A stretch of 6,220 nucleotides of DNA from a virus. The stretch lies in UHGV virus genome UHGV-0187156; one strand, given 5' to 3'. This document shows, one piece after another, positions 267 to 6,220 of the stretch. The translations under genes and the position numbers were made by a program. Positions within the stretch are counted from its first letter, which is position 1; every line of letters begins with the position of its first letter. The notes under the pieces are model-generated. The model was not told where the DNA came from, made no database searches, and saw nothing but the letters and a program-made list of their open reading frames with translations.

Positions 267-437
267 ATGATTTTTTCTTTCTGCAATATTGAAACTAAAG
301 CCTGTAATGATTTTGACTTTAACATAGTCATTTCAGGTAGTAATTTCGGTATGTTTGAAGGTTTTTTAATGGTGATCGGCGCTTTCCTTATGGGGTTCGC
401 AATAGGCCATATATGGAAGACAATATTAAGACTTTAA
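267..437 (+). CDS. small hydrophobic minor coat protein, pVII/pIX-like; start uncertain (267, 351 or 369, all in frame)
   Basis: 56-codon ORF beginning 5 nt after the gene V stop with no SD, as in Ff gene VII translational coupling. Hydrophobic core GFLMVIGAFLMGFAIG with basic tail; DFDFNIV loosely recalls the ADFDTIY segment of M13 pVII. Lies between V and VIII, as VII/IX do in Ff. Confidence 0.4.
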   Translation: MIFSFCNIETKACNDFDFNIVISGSNFGMFEGFLMVIGAFLMGFAIGHIWKTILRL

Positions 438-458
438 ACTTTACTTTTGGAGAAACAA

Positions 459-611
459 ATGGAACCTACAAACGCACTGGCTGGACTGCTTAACGCAATT
501 AATTTTTCTGATCTGATCGCAATCATGGTGGGTGTCGGTACAGCCGGTATCTCATTCATTCTCGCTGTGGTTGGCGTGAAACGTTTCTGGACTCTGGTCA
601 AAGGTATTTAA
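459..611 (+). CDS. VIII: major coat protein (pVIII-like), 50 aa, no obvious cleavable leader
   Basis: GGAG at 447-450, 8 nt before the ATG. Acidic N-terminus (E, D), continuous hydrophobic core (IAIMVGVGTAGISFILAVVGV), basic C-terminus (KRFWTLVKGI) as in DNA-contacting tails of inovirus coat proteins. Followed immediately by a strong terminator, as gene VIII is in Ff. Confidence 0.72.
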   Translation: MEPTNALAGLLNAINFSDLIAIMVGVGTAGISFILAVVGVKRFWTLVKGI

Positions 612-627
612 CCCTTAACCATTTTCT

Positions 628-651
628 AAAGGGGCTTCGGCCCCTTTTTTT
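628..651 (+). terminator. rho-independent terminator after the major coat gene
   Basis: AAAGGGGC-TTCG-GCCCCTTT: 5-bp GC stem extended by A:T pairs, TTCG tetraloop, then a run of 7 T (645-651). Same position as the strong terminator downstream of gene VIII in Ff phages. Confidence 0.8.
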
Positions 652-665
652 ATAACGGTGATGTC

Positions 666-725
666 ATGTTTATTTTAGGAATTATTCTTGCACTTGCGTT
701 TATTGCTGGTCTTACGATGAGATAA
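666..725 (+). CDS. hypothetical 19-aa hydrophobic peptide (MFILGIILALAFIAGLTMR)
   Basis: ATG at 666 with GGTGA 5 nt upstream; stop TAA at 723-725, 5 nt before the gene III ATG. Entirely hydrophobic apart from the terminal R. Too short to call with confidence. Confidence 0.25.
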   Translation: MFILGIILALAFIAGLTMR

Positions 726-730
726 CCACT

Positions 731-1966
731 ATGACTACAAAAAAGTTACTTTTGCTCGGTTTATTACTTACCAGCTTTAGTGTTATGCCTTTTATTCAAT
801 TTGCCTATGTCGGAGAATCTTTAATCTCTGCTGGTCTTGGTCGTCTTTTTGCCTCCCGAGCTGCAACAGCTGCAACAGGTGAAGTCTTTACGAAATTACT
901 ACAAAGTACTGTTGCTTCCTCAAAGGCAATAATACAAAAGAACCTTTCAAATATTCCTTTAAAGTCAGCCTTAAGAACCGCTGGCGGTGGTACATTCCTT
1001 GCCGTTCTCGGTCAATCTGGAATCTCTATTTATGACTACTTCACAAACGAAAAAGTAACTTTTGACGGTAATCTAACTGATGAAAATTTAAAAGTAAGTC
1101 GTCCATCTGAAAACTCTTTAGGTGAACTTAAAGAATGGAACGGCACATTTATAGATCTTGTAACTGCTGAGGGAACCTCAGTTCGTGGATATCCGCAGCC
1201 ACCACTACTCAGGAAAGAAACATCAAGCAGATACGCTATTTATTCAGCAACGACTGATCCGAGACTTCAGGAGTGGATACAGAGCAGCAGTCCTACAATT
1301 TTCTCAAACTCCTACGTTCAACAGCCTGACGGTAAGGCGGTAAAGATGGATCTCTATCGTTACCAACGAACCTTCAAGACAGGTGAAACTGTAGACGTGC
1401 CGAAATTGTCGGATAAGGTGACTGGATCGGTTGCTGATGTCGTACCGAAGTCTAAGCTTGAAGAAACCGTACCGATTGATGTTCTTACGGATATGGTGAA
1501 CTCGATAACGCGAAACATTGAGGCTGATGCGACTTATGAGGGTGTATCTTTCCCTGATGTCTGGACTCGCGATCAGGTAGCAGCTGCTTTCCCTGGTGTC
1601 CGCTGGGTAGATTTAGTCAGGCCAATTGAAAAAGACATTCCTTCGATTCCGGTAATTAGCACACCTAATGCGGATGTTGTTCCTGACTGGGGAACTTCCC
1701 CAGATAATGGCGACCTTTCAGATCCTGAGGCGCCACCAATTTCCTCGATTATTCAGCCTTTCAAGATAATGCAGACTGATATAAATAACAGGCTTGGTTT
1801 TAATATTCCTGCTGGTGAATGTCCTGTGTTTACTGTGAACTTCTTCGGAAAAATAAAATCAGACAATACATTTTGTGAATTCATGAATAAGTACGCTGGC
1901 GTGCTTAGGGCAATTTTCTTAGCAATGTCATCAATTCTTGCTGTCCGTATTTTCTTAACTGCATAG
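731..1966 (+). CDS. III: minor coat / adsorption protein (pIII-like)
   Basis: 411 aa. N-terminal signal-peptide-like segment (MTTKKLLLLGLLLTSFSV), C-terminal hydrophobic anchor (AGVLRAIFLAMSSILAVRIFLTA), size and position match Ff gene III. N-terminal receptor-binding part not recognisably Ff-like, as expected for host-range domains. Confidence 0.75.
   Translation: MTTKKLLLLGLLLTSFSVMPFIQFAYVGESLISAGLGRLFASRAATAATGEVFTKLLQSTVASSKAIIQKNLSNIPLKSALRTAGGGTFLAVLGQSGISIYDYFTNEKVTFDGNLTDENLKVSRPSENSLGELKEWNGTFIDLVTAEGTSVRGYPQPPLLRKETSSRYAIYSATTDPRLQEWIQSSSPTIFSNSYVQQPDGKAVKMDLYRYQRTFKTGETVDVPKLSDKVTGSVADVVPKSKLEETVPIDVLTDMVNSITRNIEADATYEGVSFPDVWTRDQVAAAFPGVRWVDLVRPIEKDIPSIPVISTPNADVVPDWGTSPDNGDLSDPEAPPISSIIQPFKIMQTDINNRLGFNIPAGECPVFTVNFFGKIKSDNTFCEFMNKYAGVLRAIFLAMSSILAVRIFLTA
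741..753. repeat. dispersed motif copy AAAAGTTACTTTT (perfect)
   Basis: Exact 13-mer, 10 nt downstream of the gene III ATG (codons 4-8). Confidence 0.9.
1051..1063. repeat. dispersed motif copy AAAAGTAACTTTT (perfect; extended 19-nt identity with the 3211 copy)
   Basis: Exact 13-mer inside gene III, encoding NEKVTF in frame. AAACGAAAAAGTAACTTTT is shared with 3205-3223. Confidence 0.9.
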
Positions 1967-1973
1967 GTGATTT

Positions 1974-2261
1974 ATGTACGCTGTACTCTTATCTGCTTTA
2001 ACACTTATTGCTAAATTCTTCATTAAAGGCACTGTAATAAAATTCGTTTTTTTTTCAGCTCTTGCGTACTTCGTGATCGAAATGGTGCCTTACATAATCA
2101 CATTTTTTATGGGCGGAAATTATCTTGCTGGTGTATTTGATCAAATGCCGTCGGGTATTCTTTACTTTCTGAATGTGATTGATTTCAAGACATCCTTTCA
2201 AATCGTCCTGTCCGCTTATGTGGCGCGTTTTGTGGTAAGACGCTTACCGGTGGTGGGCTGA
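1974..2261 (+). CDS. VI: minor coat protein (pVI-like)
   Basis: 95-aa strongly hydrophobic protein directly after gene III. AGGTGA SD at 1965-1970 overlaps the gene III stop. Its stop overlaps the gene I start (TGATG), as in Ff. Confidence 0.72.
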   Translation: MYAVLLSALTLIAKFFIKGTVIKFVFFSALAYFVIEMVPYIITFFMGGNYLAGVFDQMPSGILYFLNVIDFKTSFQIVLSAYVARFVVRRLPVVG

Positions 2262-3241
2262 TGGCTATAAACCTCTATGTGGGCCTACAGGGCGCTGGTA
2301 AATCATACGAAAGTGTAAAATCCGTTGTCCTCCCAGCTCTTGCTCAGGGACAGCGTGTTGTATCTAATATTGAAGGTCTTGATTCTGAGAAGGTATACGC
2401 CTATGTAAAAAAAATATTTAAGGTAGATGAATCATCAATCGGCGAGCTTGTGTATGTAGAAGACGACCTCATAAAGCGAGATGATTTTTTTCCAACTGAG
2501 GATGGTGATTCACAATACGTAAAATACGGTGATCTGGTTGTAATTGATGAAGCGTGGAGATTTTTTGATAGTGAAAGAACTCTGTTACCTAATCACAAAC
2601 AATTTTTCGGTATGTTGCGCCATTATGGCTGTCAAATGGCTGTCATTAATCAAACAAACGGTTTATGCAAAAGTCTGCTCGGTAGAATACAGACAACCTA
2701 CAAAATGCACCGTGCGTTTTCTGTCGGTTTTAAAACAAGGTACTCAATAATTAGTTACAGCGGCTCTGAGATGCGAAAGCAAGATATTTACAAAACTCAG
2801 GCTTTTCTAAAATACAACCCTGAAATATTCAGTCTCTATAAATCAGAAAAGCAAAAAGCAGCTACAAAACTAGATAAGAGACAAAATATATGGTCGGTAT
2901 TCGGTTTGTTATTACTAACGATCGGCGTGCTGGCTGTCTCTGCTACTTTTCTTTTTAAAAAATTCTACGGTGTGACTCCTGAACGCTCAGTTCCTGCGTC
3001 ATCTACTCCTTTACATCAACAAGTACCAGTGCCTACTTCGAATTTTATAGATACAACACAAAAAGCAACTTCCTACAGATATGTAGGTTTCTATCAGAAA
3101 GATAATCAGCGTTTTGCTCTACTGAGGGATGAAAATCAACTTCTAGTAATCATCCCTTACTCAAGATGCACAAATGAAGGTCGCCGAACCTCTTGTGAGC
3201 ATGAAAACGAAAAAGTAACTTTTTATGGTGGTGTGAAATGA
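2261..3241 (+). CDS. I: assembly ATPase (pI / Zot-like)
   Basis: 326 aa. Walker A GLQGAGKS near the N-terminus, Walker B-like LVVIDEAW, single transmembrane segment IWSVFGLLLLTIGVLAVSATFLF, periplasmic C-terminal tail. Stop overlaps the gene IV start (ATGA). Architecture recalled from M13 pI. Confidence 0.88.
   Translation: MAINLYVGLQGAGKSYESVKSVVLPALAQGQRVVSNIEGLDSEKVYAYVKKIFKVDESSIGELVYVEDDLIKRDDFFPTEDGDSQYVKYGDLVVIDEAWRFFDSERTLLPNHKQFFGMLRHYGCQMAVINQTNGLCKSLLGRIQTTYKMHRAFSVGFKTRYSIISYSGSEMRKQDIYKTQAFLKYNPEIFSLYKSEKQKAATKLDKRQNIWSVFGLLLLTIGVLAVSATFLFKKFYGVTPERSVPASSTPLHQQVPVPTSNFIDTTQKATSYRYVGFYQKDNQRFALLRDENQLLVIIPYSRCTNEGRRTSCEHENEKVTFYGGVK
3211..3223. repeat. dispersed motif copy AAAAGTAACTTTT (perfect)
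   Basis: Exact 13-mer at the 3' end of gene I, encoding ENEKVTFYGG, ending 15 nt upstream of the gene IV ATG. Confidence 0.9.
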
Positions 3242-4452
3242 AAAAAATACTCTTAACTATGACTTTTCTCTTAAACTCCTTTTTCGTGAATGCAACGAAT
3301 ATTGACTTCTCGATAACGGATGCAGGCCTTAACGATGTGATAACCCTCGTATACTCGGACATCTTAAAAAAGCCGTTTATGTTAGATCCTGCAATAGTTG
3401 AGAAACCACAAAAAGTTACTTTTTACTTCACAAAAAATCAGGACTTCGAAAAAACTTTTTATTCCTACCTGAACAGCCTCGGTTACGAAGTGAAAACAAA
3501 ATCAGGTGTCGATTTCATCAGGATTGCTCCTGAGCGTGTTATGGCGCCTCCAAAAACATACGTATACGTTTACCAACCTTTTCACCGTACTGTTTCTTAT
3601 CTTTCAGACATCATTTCGAATTCATTACAAAACAACTTTTCAACTGTAACCGGGATTGGTGATGGGAACATGTCGCCCGGAACTGTAGCACCGGATAGCG
3701 CCGGGCAGCTGCTTAGCAGAACTGGCGATAGACTTGTATTTAATGGCACTCAAGCAAAAATAGAAGAGCTCAAAAAGCTACTAACAGAAATTGATGTACC
3801 TAGTCAGTCAGTAGAGATAACCGGGTATCTATACGAGGTGGCCACAAATAAGAAAAATGGATCAGGTATGCAGCTTGCTGCAAAACTACTTTCCGGAAAA
3901 TTCAAGATCGGCATGGGTACAACACGGGGTTACAGTAACTTCATCTCTCTTTCAACGGGTAGTGTCGATGCTCTCTATGAGCTGTTCTCAACTGATAACC
4001 GGTTCACGGTTGTATCTGCTCCACGTTTGACCGTTGATTCTGGCGAGAAAGCATCTTTTGCCGTTGGTGATGATGTGCCTGTACTCAATACAACAACAAT
4101 TACAGATGGAACTGTACAGCAGGGGGTTTCTTATCAAAGCGCTGGTGTTCTCTTCAATGTTTCTCCGGTTGTTATATCATCAAAAATAAGACTTAACTTC
4201 TCCCAAGAGCTTTCAAGTTTCGTTGAGACAACAACAGGCGTAAACGACTCACCAACCAAAACAAAACGCACAATTCAAAGCGTTGTAACTGTAGACAATG
4301 GCTCTATCATTGTTGTTGGTGGGTTAGCTTCAAGAAAGAAATCTGATAACAAAACGGGTCTCAGTTTTTTGCCTGATATTTTTGCGCAAAATTCAGACTC
4401 TGATGAGCATACTGATTTGATAGCTGTCATTCAGGTAAGAAAGCTGGGCTAG
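3238..4452 (+). CDS. IV: secretin (pIV-like outer-membrane export channel)
   Basis: 404 aa with N-terminal signal-like sequence. C-terminal region matches recalled M13 pIV secretin motifs (VVSAPRLTVDSGEKASFAVGDDVPV versus ILSVPRILTLSGQKGSISVGQNVPF; VVGGLASRKKSDNKTGLSFLPDI versus LLGGLTDYKNTSQDSGVPFLSKI). Confidence 0.88.
   Translation: MKKILLTMTFLLNSFFVNATNIDFSITDAGLNDVITLVYSDILKKPFMLDPAIVEKPQKVTFYFTKNQDFEKTFYSYLNSLGYEVKTKSGVDFIRIAPERVMAPPKTYVYVYQPFHRTVSYLSDIISNSLQNNFSTVTGIGDGNMSPGTVAPDSAGQLLSRTGDRLVFNGTQAKIEELKKLLTEIDVPSQSVEITGYLYEVATNKKNGSGMQLAAKLLSGKFKIGMGTTRGYSNFISLSTGSVDALYELFSTDNRFTVVSAPRLTVDSGEKASFAVGDDVPVLNTTTITDGTVQQGVSYQSAGVLFNVSPVVISSKIRLNFSQELSSFVETTTGVNDSPTKTKRTIQSVVTVDNGSIIVVGGLASRKKSDNKTGLSFLPDIFAQNSDSDEHTDLIAVIQVRKLG
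3411..3423. repeat. dispersed motif copy AAAAGTTACTTTT (perfect)
   Basis: Exact 13-mer inside gene IV, encoding QKVTFYF in frame. Confidence 0.9.
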
Positions 4453-4500
4453 CACGATGCCGGAGCGCCAGCGACGAAAGAGGGATAGACCAGCTTTCTT
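4437..4500. repeat. long imperfect hairpin spanning the gene IV stop (11-bp arms, about 42-nt interior)
   Basis: AAGAAAGCTGG at 4437-4447 is the reverse complement of CCAGCTTTCTT at 4490-4500. In Ff the packaging-signal hairpin lies immediately downstream of gene IV. Confidence 0.45.
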
Positions 4501-4519
4501 TCTCTCTCTCTTCTGTCAG

Positions 4520-4532
4520 AAAAGTTACTTTT
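4520..4532. repeat. dispersed motif copy AAAAGTTACTTTT (perfect, intergenic)
   Basis: Exact 13-mer in the IG, directly after the polypyrimidine tract and before the C-rich run. Confidence 0.9.
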
Positions 4533-4569
4533 CTTCCTCCCCCCGTTTTCGTTGCCTCTGTGTCAATCG

Positions 4570-4605
4570 CTTAATCGTGGGGGCCCCTTTGGGGTTCCGA
4601 TTAAG
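4570..4605. repeat. nested palindrome: 8-bp outer stem around GGGGGCCCC and CCCCTTTGGGG
   Basis: CTTAATCG (4570-4577) pairs with CGATTAAG (4598-4605). The interior holds two mutually exclusive GC palindromes, so alternative folds are possible. Confidence 0.5.
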
Positions 4606-4640
4606 TGATTTACACCACTCCCCTTTTCATACTTCCGCCT

Positions 4641-4672
4641 GGTCGTTGGGGAGGCATTTTTCCCCAACGACC
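4641..4672. repeat. perfect 12-bp stem hairpin with 8-nt loop
   Basis: GGTCGTTGGGGA (4641-4652) is the exact reverse complement of TCCCCAACGACC (4661-4672); loop GGCATTTT. Confidence 0.6.
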
Positions 4673-4697
4673 TGTTAAGCTGGTTTTGCCTTAAGTG

Positions 4698-4708
4698 CCG
4701 CGAAGCGG
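4698..4708. repeat. GNA-triloop mini-hairpin CCGC-GAA-GCGG containing GCGAAGC
   Basis: The heptamer GCGAAGC (4700-4706) is the classic exceptionally stable DNA mini-hairpin, here extended by flanking C:G pairs. Confidence 0.5.
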
Positions 4709-4792
4709 TTTGGGGTTCTAGTGACACCCAAACTTTGGTATGGGATCGCATACTTTTTCACACCCCGCACCGTCCGGAAGTTGACTTTCTAC

Positions 4793-4987
4793 CTAACTTT
4801 TTTTTTCGGCTAAACTGCTGAAATATGCCTCCGTACCGTCAAGGTCGCCGTTTTCCATCAGGTATAATGCAAGCTGAGTCCAGGTGATGCTTTTCTTGTA
4901 TGCGAAGCTAAGTTCAATTGCTTTTTGCTCTAGCCGTTTCTTAGTCGATAACGGCACCCGCATTGAGATAGTTTTTTTTGTATTCAT
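4793..4987 (-). CDS. hypothetical small DNA-binding protein, ribbon-helix-helix-like (candidate transcriptional regulator)
   Basis: 64 aa (MNTKKTISMRVPLSTKKRLEQKAIELSFAYKKSITWTQLALYLMENGDLDGTEAYFSSLAEKKS). Minus-strand context AGCAGGAGGATTC-ATG gives an AGGAGG SD 4 nt before the start. N-terminal basic strand (TISMRVP) followed by two predicted helices fits the Arc/MetJ/CopG ribbon-helix-helix layout. Divergent from gene II. The longer start at 5053 in the ORF track lacks an SD. Confidence 0.5.
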   Translation of the reverse strand: MNTKKTISMRVPLSTKKRLEQKAIELSFAYKKSITWTQLALYLMENGDLDGTEAYFSSLAEKKS

Positions 4988-5023
4988 GAATCCTCCTGCT
5001 CTTACTTTACAGCAGACTTGCAG

Positions 5024-5052
5024 TTGCATAAATAATAGAATATGTGTATACA
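5024..5052 (+). promoter_or_regulatory. candidate sigma70 promoter for gene II (TTGCAT, 17-bp spacer, TATACA)
   Basis: -35-like TTGCAT at 5024-5029 and -10-like TATACA at 5047-5052 with a 17-bp AT-rich spacer, about 40 nt upstream of the gene II ATG. The -10 overlaps the 8-bp palindrome TGTATACA (5045-5052). Sequence-only prediction. Confidence 0.35.
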
Positions 5053-5092
5053 TAGATACAGGGATTCAGGGATACGGGTAAGGTGCTAAATA

Positions 5093-6211
5093 ATGTACTT
5101 TTTTGATTGGCTAGACATCTCTCAGGATTTTGGAACGGATTTACCCATCAAGAGTGATTTAGTGTATCTGCGCCTCAATACAGTAACTGGTGAGCATGGG
5201 GCTGTGAATCAACCAACCATCCGCCATCAGGGCAGTTTTTGCGATCAGCTCATGATAAGCCTTAAGGGCTCAGAATTGCGCGTGTCCGGGAACCCGTCAC
5301 GCTGGGGTCGTCTTGATAATCTGTTTGGTCATGCCACAATTGATCAGTGTGTAGCTGTATATAACGGGGTGCTTCGGTCTATGGGGTTGCCTGAATTTAC
5401 CAAATGTACAAAAACACTTGTCGTACAGGGTGACAGTAACGAAAAAGTAACTTATACCAGCAATGGTGCGATGATAAGAGAAATTCACATCACCACGAAT
5501 ACGGCTGTTGGTCAGGGGAATGTGCTTGATTACATAAAGGCATTAAGCACTCAGAGATACAGAAACTCTACTCCCTATCTGTACCCTAATGGTCGCTCTG
5601 TTGATTGGCGCACCAAGTCAGGTAGTACAAGCCTTGTTTATCCGACCGTTTACGATAAAGCAAATAACCTTATTGATAAAAATTTAAATAAGATAATTAA
5701 GACTTTTGGCGAAAATTCGCAAGAGCATAAGTATTTAAAGAAACTAATTGAATATTGCCAAATCAACGGTGTAGTACGATTTGAGCAAAAGTTAAAAAAT
5801 GAATACCTTCGTAGAAACAATATGCGTTTCTGGGGTATTGCAAACTTTGATCACTTGGAAGTATTACAGAATCAATTCCTTGATATTGATCAGAAACTAA
5901 CGGTGACAGCCATGAACTTTGAAACTATCTCAGATCATCTTATTGCTGAAGGTATCGTAAACAATACAAAAGCCAGCATTACAACAGCTATGTATGCTTA
6001 TTTGTGGATGCAGGGTAAGGAATTTGATTTTTCAAAATCGTCAGTAAAAACGCATCGAGCACGCTTAAGAAAAATCGGTATTGATATTGCTATGCCTTGC
6101 AATATTTCCCAGTTCCAGCCAGTGGTGGTAAAAAATGTACGTCAAATCGAACGTCAGACATTAACCGCGCCAGCCTGGTATAAACAACCGCAATTCCTCA
6201 TGGCCGTCTAA
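5093..6211 (+). CDS. II: rolling-circle replication initiator (pII-like nicking endonuclease)
   Basis: 372 aa with AAGGTG SD 6 nt upstream. Recalled similarity to M13 pII (GVVRFEQKLKNEYLRR versus GLVRFEARIKTRYLKS). Positioned after the IG, as in Ff. Confidence 0.85.
   Translation: MYFFDWLDISQDFGTDLPIKSDLVYLRLNTVTGEHGAVNQPTIRHQGSFCDQLMISLKGSELRVSGNPSRWGRLDNLFGHATIDQCVAVYNGVLRSMGLPEFTKCTKTLVVQGDSNEKVTYTSNGAMIREIHITTNTAVGQGNVLDYIKALSTQRYRNSTPYLYPNGRSVDWRTKSGSTSLVYPTVYDKANNLIDKNLNKIIKTFGENSQEHKYLKKLIEYCQINGVVRFEQKLKNEYLRRNNMRFWGIANFDHLEVLQNQFLDIDQKLTVTAMNFETISDHLIAEGIVNNTKASITTAMYAYLWMQGKEFDFSKSSVKTHRARLRKIGIDIAMPCNISQFQPVVVKNVRQIERQTLTAPAWYKQPQFLMAV
5443..5455. repeat. dispersed motif copy AAAAGTAACTTAT (one mismatch)
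   Basis: Inside gene II, encoding SNEKVTYT. Shares the extended left flank AACGAAAAAGTAACTT with the 1051 and 3211 copies. Confidence 0.75.
5912..6211 (+). CDS. X: pX-like protein from an in-frame internal start within gene II
   Basis: In-frame ATG at 5912 preceded by GGTGA (5902-5906). Product begins MNFETISD, comparable to the MNIYDDSA start of M13 pX. Ff gene X is the C-terminal third of gene II translated independently. Confidence 0.45.
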   Translation: MNFETISDHLIAEGIVNNTKASITTAMYAYLWMQGKEFDFSKSSVKTHRARLRKIGIDIAMPCNISQFQPVVVKNVRQIERQTLTAPAWYKQPQFLMAV

Positions 6212-6220
6212 GGAAAAAAT

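Follow-up and report, generated by a model that had tools for sequence, protein, structure and literature searches.

The window analysed here, a stretch of 6,220 nt, is the complete circular genome of an inovirus (a filamentous phage of gut enterobacteria) in which all genes except one are encoded on the plus strand. Related genomes from Klebsiella, Citrobacter, Salmonella and gut or wastewater metagenomes fall into three natural lineages (A, B and C below) that are 77-82% identical. A 13-base palindrome, AAAAGTWACTTTT, is present in the window in five exact copies and one near-exact copy. The positions of the exact copies and of the one-mismatch copy were verified and are listed in Table 1, along with sites identified in the other lineages and a gene for a small protein. 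The A-centred and T-centred forms are reverse complements of each other, and a longer core, AACGAAAAAGTAACTT, is common to three copies (1046-1061, 3206-3221 and 5438-5453). The central base, previously described as A or T only, is also C or G in relatives. Because the centre is free, we write the motif as AAAAGT-N-ACTTTT.

Table 1. Motif copies, lineage-specific sites and the candidate binding protein (positions in the 6,220-nt window).
Feature	Position	Strand	Context
Motif copy AAAAGTTACTTTT	741-753		Gene III codons 4-8, K-K-L-L-L, signal peptide
Motif copy AAAAGTAACTTTT	1051-1063		Gene III, N-E-K-V-T-F
Motif copy AAAAGTAACTTTT	3211-3223		Gene I 3' end, 14 nt before gene IV ATG
Motif copy AAAAGTTACTTTT	3411-3423		Gene IV, Q-K-V-T-F-Y
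Copy found in lineage C only, CAAAGTAACTTTT	3628-3640		Window has CAAAACAACTTTT, 3 mismatches
Copy site, frame K-K-L-L-L	3773-3785		Window has AAAAGCTACTAAC, 4 mismatches
Non-coding motif copy	4520-4532		Intergenic, 68 nt past gene IV stop, CT-rich tracts on either side
Lineage C copy AAAAGTCACTTTT	4777-4789		Between putative plus-strand origin and 3' end of RHH gene; degenerate GAAGTTGACTTTC in window
Motif copy AAAAGTAACTTAT	5443-5455		Gene II, N-E-K-V-T-Y, 1 mismatch in window
64-aa ribbon-helix-helix (RHH)-like protein	4793-4987	-	Divergent from gene II; candidate binder

The preliminary description placed all coding copies in one reading frame, whereas two are used. The copy at 741 starts at codon position 2 and falls in the signal peptide of pIII; codon position 3 is the start only for the copies at 1051, 3211, 3411 and 5443, which encode K-V-T-F/Y. 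Two copies (741 and 3211) do lie at translation-initiation regions, as had been proposed. Most are intragenic, and by our own estimate their tendency to cluster near gene starts does not reach statistical significance. No convincing promoter overlaps a motif copy; the best candidate is a weak promoter-like match (ATGAAA-N17-TATGGT, 8/12) with the 3211 copy in its spacer. Located past a terminator-like hairpin (4440-4497), the 4520 copy extends in the window to an 8-1-8 palindrome (4518-4534), an extension that is not kept in the other lineages. Three degenerate copies had also been listed. The match at 63-75 has three mismatches and is not kept in the sister lineage, so it is probably due to chance, and that at 4794-4806 is a half-site only. 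The third, at 4777-4789, is poor in the window (four mismatches) but orthologous to the perfect copy of lineage C.

Exact copies were found in 0 of 200 dinucleotide shuffles, compared to five in the window. Among palindromes of the form 6-N(0-4)-6, maximum recurrence is 5, 4 and 4 in the three lineages, and none recurs more than three times in the shuffles of any lineage; AAAAGT-N-ACTTTT is the sole recurrent palindrome in each. Only the full palindrome is enriched (z of 27-39 for the long form vs 0.3-3.2 for GTNAC), and neither half-sites nor GTNAC alone show enrichment.

Each lineage has four or five exact and six to eight near-exact copies. Five positions are common to the lineages and four are lineage-specific; copies have been gained and lost between lineages and copy number has stayed constant. 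The 741 copy is exact in A and B and absent from C, whose signal peptide differs. At 1051 the copy is exact in A, has one mismatch in B (TTC) and reads AAATGTGACTTTT in C, and at 3211 it is exact in A and B and AAAAGT[C/T]ACATTT in C. The 3411 copy has T at its centre in A and A in B, with AAAGGTAACTTTT in C, and the 4520 copy is exact in A, AAAATTTACTTTT in B and AAAAGTCACTTTT in C. The 5443 copy is exact in B and C. New copies occur at new positions (3628, 3773 and 4777), that at 3773 being exact in C and one mismatch away in B. The motif itself is the same in lineages from different host genera. Mismatches concentrate at the symmetry-related positions 4 and 10, which fits the expectation for a two-fold site. 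The motif is thus two-fold symmetric, repeated and conserved in relatives, as is a multi-copy operator set. A concerted change from AACGA to AATGA in the flank was also considered, and was weakened by the third lineage (pattern C, T, C). Annotated phage and E. coli collections yielded no close relatives, only a match to a 60-bp IG hairpin, and the extended 18-mer returned only chance singletons and the sister phage from IMG/VR. Counting the motif in related inoviruses, as had been suggested, we found no copies in If1, PEar1 and the pII relatives.

Selection at the DNA level, laid over coding sequence, had been proposed from the window and is borne out by a codon-shuffle test, by the use of two frames plus non-coding DNA, and by turnover at constant number. 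The codon-shuffle test, which preserves both protein sequence and codon usage, predicts 0.16-0.26 coding copies vs the 4 observed (0/1000 shuffles). Across the four sites in the KVTF frame, 11 of the 15 third-codon positions other than the centre are identical in the three lineages vs 7.25 expected (P=0.03); the central base, also a third codon position, is identical at one of the four. In sum, the motif sites are non-random and under DNA-level selection, and the lineages have either retained or replaced them.

The divergent ORF had been put forward as a possible dimeric RHH-like regulator, and its predicted structure makes this plausible. In a tandem single-chain AF2 model (core pLDDT ~90, pTM 0.70), two helices follow each of the strands at residues 6-12 and 93-99, so that an N-terminal strand and two helices with a paired ribbon are predicted, and the model matches the solved structures of single-chain Arc and TraY. 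In the monomer model, which gave no Foldseek match, the same N-terminal strand segment is extended. Sequence searches returned no Pfam match for the protein or any of 10 family members and no match among PDB chains; the only profile match of the 64-aa protein is phrog_2503, to which no function is assigned. The protein is the sole candidate sequence-specific dsDNA-binding dimer encoded by the phage. Its gene is divergent from that of the rolling-circle initiator, here and in four of four remote homologues. From the model and the synteny, the ORF encodes a plausible RHH dimer and occupies a conserved position for a regulator. The first 27 residues of the protein do not vary between the lineages, and neither does the motif; with both invariant within the clade, their co-occurrence is uninformative. 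Two types of conserved repeat are found between the RHH gene and gene II, one inverted (14 nt, 4980-4993/5062-5075) and one in tandem (8-bp units, 5051-5075), and as candidate operators of the RHH protein they are the more conventional choice.

We tentatively favor the reading that the AAAAGT-N-ACTTTT copies are operator-like sites on the double-stranded replicative form (RF) for a symmetric dimer, with the phage RHH protein as the most probable, still candidate, binder. Protein binding at the sites, the identity of the binder and a regulatory outcome are what we infer from the observations above. The link to the RHH protein is unproven: no recurrent palindromes and no copy of the motif were found in the inoviruses of its remote homologues (26-36% identity), and its own divergent promoter region with gene II has no copy. 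In the proposed mechanism, the two-stranded ribbon of an RHH dimer, with T6, S8 and R10 facing outward, would enter the major groove at the G-T-N-A-C core, and affinity would be raised by the A4 and T4 tracts and possibly by the lysine-rich N-terminal arms. The sites are concentrated at and inside low-expression, potentially toxic morphogenesis genes, in gIII (741 and 1051) and gIV (3211, 3411, 3628, 3773 and 4520), with others near the origin (4777) and in gII (5443). Their occupancy would damp or roadblock transcription, perhaps through loops between paired sites 200-310 bp apart, and would in this way favor persistence of the phage as a plasmid-like episome. In a bolder version, which we consider doubtful, a regulatory code would be overprinted on genes III, I/IV, IV and II plus the IG, by which one RHH protein would control the whole RF, so that Klebsiella, Citrobacter and Salmonella would carry the phage in a plasmid-like state. 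Such control might mean that the secretin and adsorption genes are silenced, that the RF is looped or that the episome is maintained. Sites would be continually lost and remade through synonymous and conservative changes wherever the peptide is compatible.

Precedents exist for parts of this arrangement. Other RHH proteins, such as CopG and MatP (at matS), read 13-bp pseudo-palindromes. A parallel in layout is plasmid RK2 (IncP), where the KorB OB and KorA OA operators are 12-13-bp palindromes with a degenerate centre, dispersed in many copies on a small replicon. About a dozen dispersed copies of OB (TTTAGCSGCTAAA) occur on RK2; the plasmid itself encodes the dimer that reads its sites, a global regulator whose action is partly long-range. 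The phage differs in sequence and protein family (KorB is ParB-like) and in having mostly coding copies, whereas RK2 sites are mostly in promoters or intergenic; on the regulator side the likeness extends only to a candidate binder. In Enterobacteriaceae, matS (GTGACRNYGTCAC) is likewise a dispersed 13-bp palindrome with a free central base, read by the MatP dimer through a ribbon-helix-helix. MatP, however, is a chromosomal protein with additional domains that serves to organise the Ter macrodomain, its site is unrelated in sequence, and 23 matS sites are spread over 800 kb compared to six to eight phage copies in 6 kb. As for CTXphi RstR and the Pf4 repressor, a small regulator is encoded divergently from the rolling-circle initiator gene; those proteins act at operators in the divergent promoter, whereas the phage copies are dispersed and intragenic, and we know of no dispersed intragenic sites for inovirus repressors of this type. 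CopG (pMV158) and Arc/Mnt are RHH dimers that read short pseudo-symmetric elements (13 bp for CopG), but each acts at one operator, that of its own promoter, and none resembles the phage protein in sequence.

If the sites are operators, this would be to our knowledge the first inovirus in which most regulator sites lie inside coding sequence, in two frames. They would also constitute a compact natural case of dual coding (protein and protein-binding DNA), with turnover that can be traced across three lineages, and would point to how small episomal filamentous phages restrain toxic morphogenesis genes. Such phages are frequent in gut metagenomes and among clinical Enterobacteriaceae. The 13-bp site and the 64-aa protein provide a defined handle for direct tests.

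A serious rival to the RHH protein as binder is a host factor, a dimeric transcription factor or nucleoid-associated protein common to Klebsiella, Citrobacter and Salmonella, which the phage would recruit for replication, transcription control or RF organisation, or would titrate. We regard this as rather unlikely. The same DNA-level evidence from shuffles, codon shuffles and conservation applies to it, and it would accommodate an identical motif in lineages from different host genera, the copy-free RHH promoter region and the RHH homologues that come without such sites. The lineage C copy at 4777 is also placed like the host-factor (IHF) enhancer beside the origin core of Ff phages. Against a host protein are the other enterobacterial inoviruses (If1 and PEar1) and pII relatives devoid of copies, the 0 copies within one mismatch in a sampled 100 kb of E. 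coli K-12, and a literature search for the motif string, which returned primers and unrelated genomes only and no listing as a binding site. The lack of enrichment of GTNAC alone also argues against a GTnAC reader such as EbfC/YbaB. Borrelia EbfC, the only known GTnAC reader, is a dimer that reads this broken palindrome with a free centre (PMC2665219), and specifies four positions where the phage motif specifies 12. Its E. coli orthologue YbaB showed no dependence on GTnAC, its binding being without detectable change when single positions of the sequence were mutated (PMC2720974), and the EbfC/YbaB lead is not supported for enterobacteria. If the binder is nevertheless a host factor, the phage reveals an undescribed enterobacterial DNA-binding specificity. 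Other consensus sequences, including those of sigma-E, CRP, IHF, Fis, Tus-Ter and OmpR, were compared by eye, and none fits.

It is improbable that the motif acts in plus-strand mRNA, either as a processing, stability or translational-control element or by pairing of A- with T-centred copies over 13 bp, which would sequester the initiation regions of gIII and gIV. Nearly all genes share the plus strand, and in the window the neighbours 741(T) and 1051(A) complement each other exactly, as do 3211(A) and 3411(T), with one member of each pair at an initiation region. Both mRNA processing and translational repression by the gene V product are established in Ff phages. Long-range pairing is, however, not backed by covariation. 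The centres are no longer complementary in lineage B, where the gIV pair is A/A. Lineage C has no copy at 741 to pair with, and its changes at paired positions 10 and 4 give A.G and are not compensatory. In addition, an RNA element would not require its sequence to be two-fold symmetric, local structure is negligible, and copies lie past the terminator-like hairpin (4520) and in the origin region (4777).

The reading that the copies are a functionless by-product, in which common E-K-V-T-F strands in an AT-rich genome with biased codons yield the 13-mer repeatedly, is strongly disfavored and in our estimate very improbable. It draws on the finding that the KVTF segments of pI and pIV are ancestral strands shared with homologues, and not insertions or motif-imposed novelties, as the preliminary description had allowed. 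The 3211 copy encodes part of a conserved C-terminal strand of pI, in which ENEKVTFYGG aligns with DGE[RT]VTxWSG of distant Zot/pI proteins and with HEKVTC of If1, and QKVTFYF of pIV aligns with EITVYS of If1 and NITVFN of PEar1. The motif makes use of compatible beta-strand peptides already present. Isolated copies in unrelated AT-rich genomes also often encode EKVTF, among the matches listed. Codon shuffling, however, predicts far fewer copies than the four observed, and conserved copies occur in the KKLL frame and in non-coding DNA, new copies have arisen at new positions, and 0 copies were found in 237 kb of unselected other loci. A contig scan with AAAAAGTNACTTTTT gave scattered single matches in AT-rich taxa, among the matches listed, and is uninformative.

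Slightly less probable still are structural elements of the ssDNA genome, small hairpins that would serve packaging, priming or pV nucleation. These would suit a palindrome in a phage that packages ssDNA, with an 8-1-8 copy in the IG of the window, but hairpin energies are 0 to -3.8 kcal/mol, four of six are no better than shuffles, and what is conserved is the sequence rather than pairing. We found no compensatory changes and none of the stable, covarying stem-loops of structural elements in ssDNA phages, and the IG extension is not conserved. Least probable is a host-genome-wide signal copied by the phage (of uptake or Chi type) or a recombination or module-boundary site: the copies are dispersed, the motif is taken as orientation-free, and recombination between sublineages exists, but the E. 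coli K-12 sample, taken as a proxy host, has none of the high chromosomal density of USS/DUS sequences, we know of no sequence-specific uptake in these hosts, mosaic breakpoints lie near 250 and 5000 and not at copies, and the phage encodes no recombinase. An engineered origin, which had been left open, is excluded by the existence of three natural lineages 18-23% apart.

An Rfam search of the sequence found no credible family. The IS insertion in L056 abuts ~4199 in gIV, and not a motif copy. No extended blocks of synonymous constraint surround the motif copies; peaks of synonymous constraint were identified in gII at 5777-6031.

The 13-base palindrome AAAAGT-N-ACTTTT is a real, selected and clade-specific DNA element of putative function. 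Five exact copies (starting at 741, 1051, 3211, 3411 and 4520) and one copy with a single mismatch (5443) lie where the preliminary description placed them, and none of 200 dinucleotide shuffles of the window contained any exact copy. When all 6-N(0-4)-6 palindromes were scanned without bias, this was the only recurrent one.

The window is a complete circular inovirus genome of 6,220 bases (40.8% G+C). Terminal assembly overlaps in 16 independent contigs of 6,216-6,221 nt confirm that it is circular and of this length. An NCBI 'MULTISPECIES Enterobacteriaceae' protein known from isolates and from human-gut and wastewater metagenomes matches pI at 100% identity, and relatives derive from Citrobacter sp. 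MGH105 (a 6,219-bp sequence recorded as a plasmid), Klebsiella pneumoniae and Salmonella enterica. Annotated phages and complete E. coli genomes yielded no close relatives; If1, with 55% pII identity, is the nearest phage that has been characterised. Three deep, collinear lineages share 77-82% DNA identity: A (the window and relatives >99.7% identical), B (database sequences L001, L050 and L068) and C (L054, L055 and L072).

Features of the circular genome
Feature	Coordinates	Strand	Domain or remark
pV	1-261	plus	Phage_DNA_bind
56-aa membrane ORF		plus	
50-aa coat-like ORF	459-611	plus	
Strong terminator	628-655		after 50-aa coat-like ORF
pIII	731-1966	plus	
pVI		plus	DUF2523
pI	2261-3241	plus	Zot
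pIV	3238-4452	plus	secretin
Intergenic region (IG)			between pIV and pII genes
RHH-like ORF	4793-4987	minus	sole minus-strand ORF, divergent from gene II
Palindrome TGTATACA	~5045		
8-bp tandem units GATACAGG/GATTCAGG/GATACGGG	5051-5075		
pII	5093-6211	plus	

Lineage C is mosaic: L054 and L055 are ~100% identical over ~300-5000 and ~85% identical over 5000-6220 and 1-250, and L054 and L072 show roughly the reverse. This points to recombination among phages circulating together, with exchange of the replication module. In a metagenomic lineage-A copy (L056, 1-1382), an IS3-family element (rve, HTH_Tnp_1) adjoins window position ~4199, inside gene IV; the junction reflects an IS insertion or else a chimeric assembly.

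The motif is enriched in all three lineages: each has 4-5 exact copies and, when one mismatch is allowed, 6-8 copies. The most recurrent palindrome recurs 5, 4 and 4 times in them, as against never more than three times in shuffles of any lineage. Positions 1051, 3211, 3411, 4520 and 5443 are common to all three. The motif is present at 741 in A and B, at 3773 in B and C (KKLL frame), and at 3628 and 4777 in C only. The centre is written as N because all four bases occur there; mismatches to the consensus concentrate at the symmetry-related positions 4 and 10. Of the copies previously called degenerate, that at 4777-4789 corresponds to a perfect copy at the orthologous site of another lineage; those at 63-75 and 4794-4806 lack support. 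Neither motif copies nor any recurrent palindrome were detected in distant pII relatives, If1 or PEar1, and the motif is absent from 237 kb of unselected other loci. An unrelated AT-rich genome (L147, Gammaproteobacteria MAG Glo_16), with no protein similarity to the phage, has three copies (175, 1896 and 2412) of a longer intergenic repeat, AAAAGTTACTTTTTTATTTGCATTTGTCAATATTA, that starts with the same palindrome.

The core of the preliminary description, selection at the DNA level over coding sequence, holds because of the enrichment, the use of two frames, the conserved non-coding copy and turnover among lineages; several of its details and candidate roles do not. Codon shuffling with every protein sequence and codon usage fixed predicts 0.16 exact copies in coding sequence with an A or T centre and 0.26 with an N centre, versus four observed (0/1000). 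The coding copies had been assigned to a single frame; four do read K-V-T-F/Y, but the 741 copy reads K-K-L-L-L. At the four KVTF-frame sites, the three lineages agree at 11 of 15 third-codon positions outside the centre, where codon-specific backgrounds predict 7.25 (P=0.03); the centre base, likewise a third-codon position, is identical at only one of the four. This comparison is modest evidence of DNA selection. The pI C-terminus ENEKVTFYGG aligns with DGE[RT]VTxWSG of distant Zot/pI proteins and with HEKVTC of If1, and QKVTFYF of pIV aligns with EITVYS and NITVFN. Thus, the motif has been written onto peptides that already permitted it. The preliminary description had named homologues with the same peptide as evidence against its reading; this objection holds in part for the peptide, but not for the DNA.

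Three A-centred coding copies (1046-1063, 3206-3223 and 5438-5455) share an asymmetric 5' extension, AAYGA, giving N-E-K-V-T-F/Y. In this extension, Y is C at all three copies in lineage A and T at all three in B, and reads C,T,C in lineage C. T-centred copies have no mirror image of the extension; short-patch conversion, chance or protein constraint could be responsible. The 741 copy creates A_AAA_AAG (739-745) in the gene III frame (codons 3-5), also kept in lineage B; this heptamer, the classical -1 slippery sequence of dnaX type, is probably incidental, being so early in gene III. The IG copy comes shortly after a terminator-like hairpin (4440-4497) and sits within long pyrimidine (CT) tracts (4497-4545), including CUUCCUCC, which is anti-Shine-Dalgarno-like in RNA.

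We interpret the motif copies as operator-like sites on the double-stranded replicative form for a symmetric dimer. Seven of nine positions are located at gIII and gIV, inside them or immediately beyond gIV; pairs are separated by 200-310 bp, and upstream of gIV one copy occupies the spacer of a weak promoter-like match. This distribution suggests that the sites would damp or roadblock morphogenesis genes that are poorly expressed and potentially toxic, perhaps together with looping. By our own estimate the positional clustering is not significant, and no convincing promoter overlap with the copies was found. In function, the closest analogues are three 13-bp sites: the KorB operators of RK2, which are dispersed, the matS sites that RHH-containing MatP reads, and the pseudo-symmetric CopG operator. 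To our knowledge, dispersed, mostly intragenic palindromic sites are undescribed in any inovirus, and the motif was not found as a binding site in the searchable literature. The resemblance to GTnAC, the specificity of Borrelia EbfC, is no more than that; the E. coli orthologue binds independently of GTnAC (PMC2720974).

The phage's own 64-aa ribbon-helix-helix-like (RHH) protein is, tentatively, the likeliest candidate for the binder. It has no Pfam or PDB sequence matches and belongs to the small-protein family phrog_2503, found as the divergent neighbour of the inovirus rolling-circle initiator gene in all four remote contexts examined; among inovirus repressors, the RstR/Pf4r class is its closest positional analogue. 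The monomer was modelled with three helices and an extended N-terminus, and a tandem single-chain model based on the alignment of the family pairs the two N-termini as strands (6-12 and 93-99; pTM 0.70). Hydrophobic I7, M9 and V11 alternate with polar T6, S8 and R10 along the strand, and residues 1-27 are invariant in all lineages. Several lines thus point to a DNA-binding regulator, and synteny, models, strand pattern and invariant N-terminus make it a credible symmetric dsDNA reader, the only one predicted to be phage-encoded. However, no motif copies occur in its divergent promoter region, where the conserved repeats are of other kinds (an inverted repeat of 14 nt and the 8-bp tandem units), and phages with remote homologues lack dispersed palindromes. 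A host-encoded dimer reading the same sites is a less likely but serious alternative, and some other function or another phage protein is unlikely.

An RNA-level element is improbable. Each adjacent pair in the window comprises one A-centred and one T-centred copy, exact complements that could pair at long range, but the gIV pair is A/A in lineage B, the 741 partner is missing in lineage C and changes at paired positions are non-compensatory (A.G). We give little credence to a functionless by-product, and less to a single-stranded structural element, as hairpin energies are 0 to -3.8 kcal/mol, mostly indistinguishable from shuffles. Least credible is a host-wide signal or recombination site: no copies occur in 100 kb of E. 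coli K-12, which argues against an uptake or Chi-type signal at least in that sample, and the lineage C breakpoints lie near 250 and 5000, away from the motif copies. GTNAC or half-site enrichment is not the basis of the recurrence, and engineering is rejected given natural lineages 18-23% apart.

Other elements were also identified. A hairpin in the IG (4561-4621), with arms at 4560-4577 and 4598-4615, has counterparts of 89-92% identity in non-coding DNA of ~96 plasmids from Escherichia, Salmonella, Klebsiella, Edwardsiella and Erwinia, of which 68 are conjugative, and in Erwinia PEar inoviruses; all probably share a signal for single-strand initiation or of the minus-strand-origin type. The near-invariant IG block GGGGTTCTAGTGACACCC..ACTTTGGTATGGGATCGCATACT (4707-4758), a putative plus-strand origin core, resembles GTTCTTTAATAGTGGAC, the nick region of f1. 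The inverted repeat GTATTCATGAATCC / GGATTCAGGGATAC flanks the divergent RHH/gII promoter region; its conserved arms (4980-4993 and 5062-5075) are 68 nt apart. The repeats of 4980-5075 are candidates for a conventional operator or iteron; an Rfam MIR160 match there (E=0.035) is spurious. The strongest synonymous-site conservation in the genome occurs inside gene II (5777-5836, 5876-5914 and 6005-6031), where it probably marks the point at which the internal gene X begins (ATG 5912), along with the promoter and initiation region of that gene.
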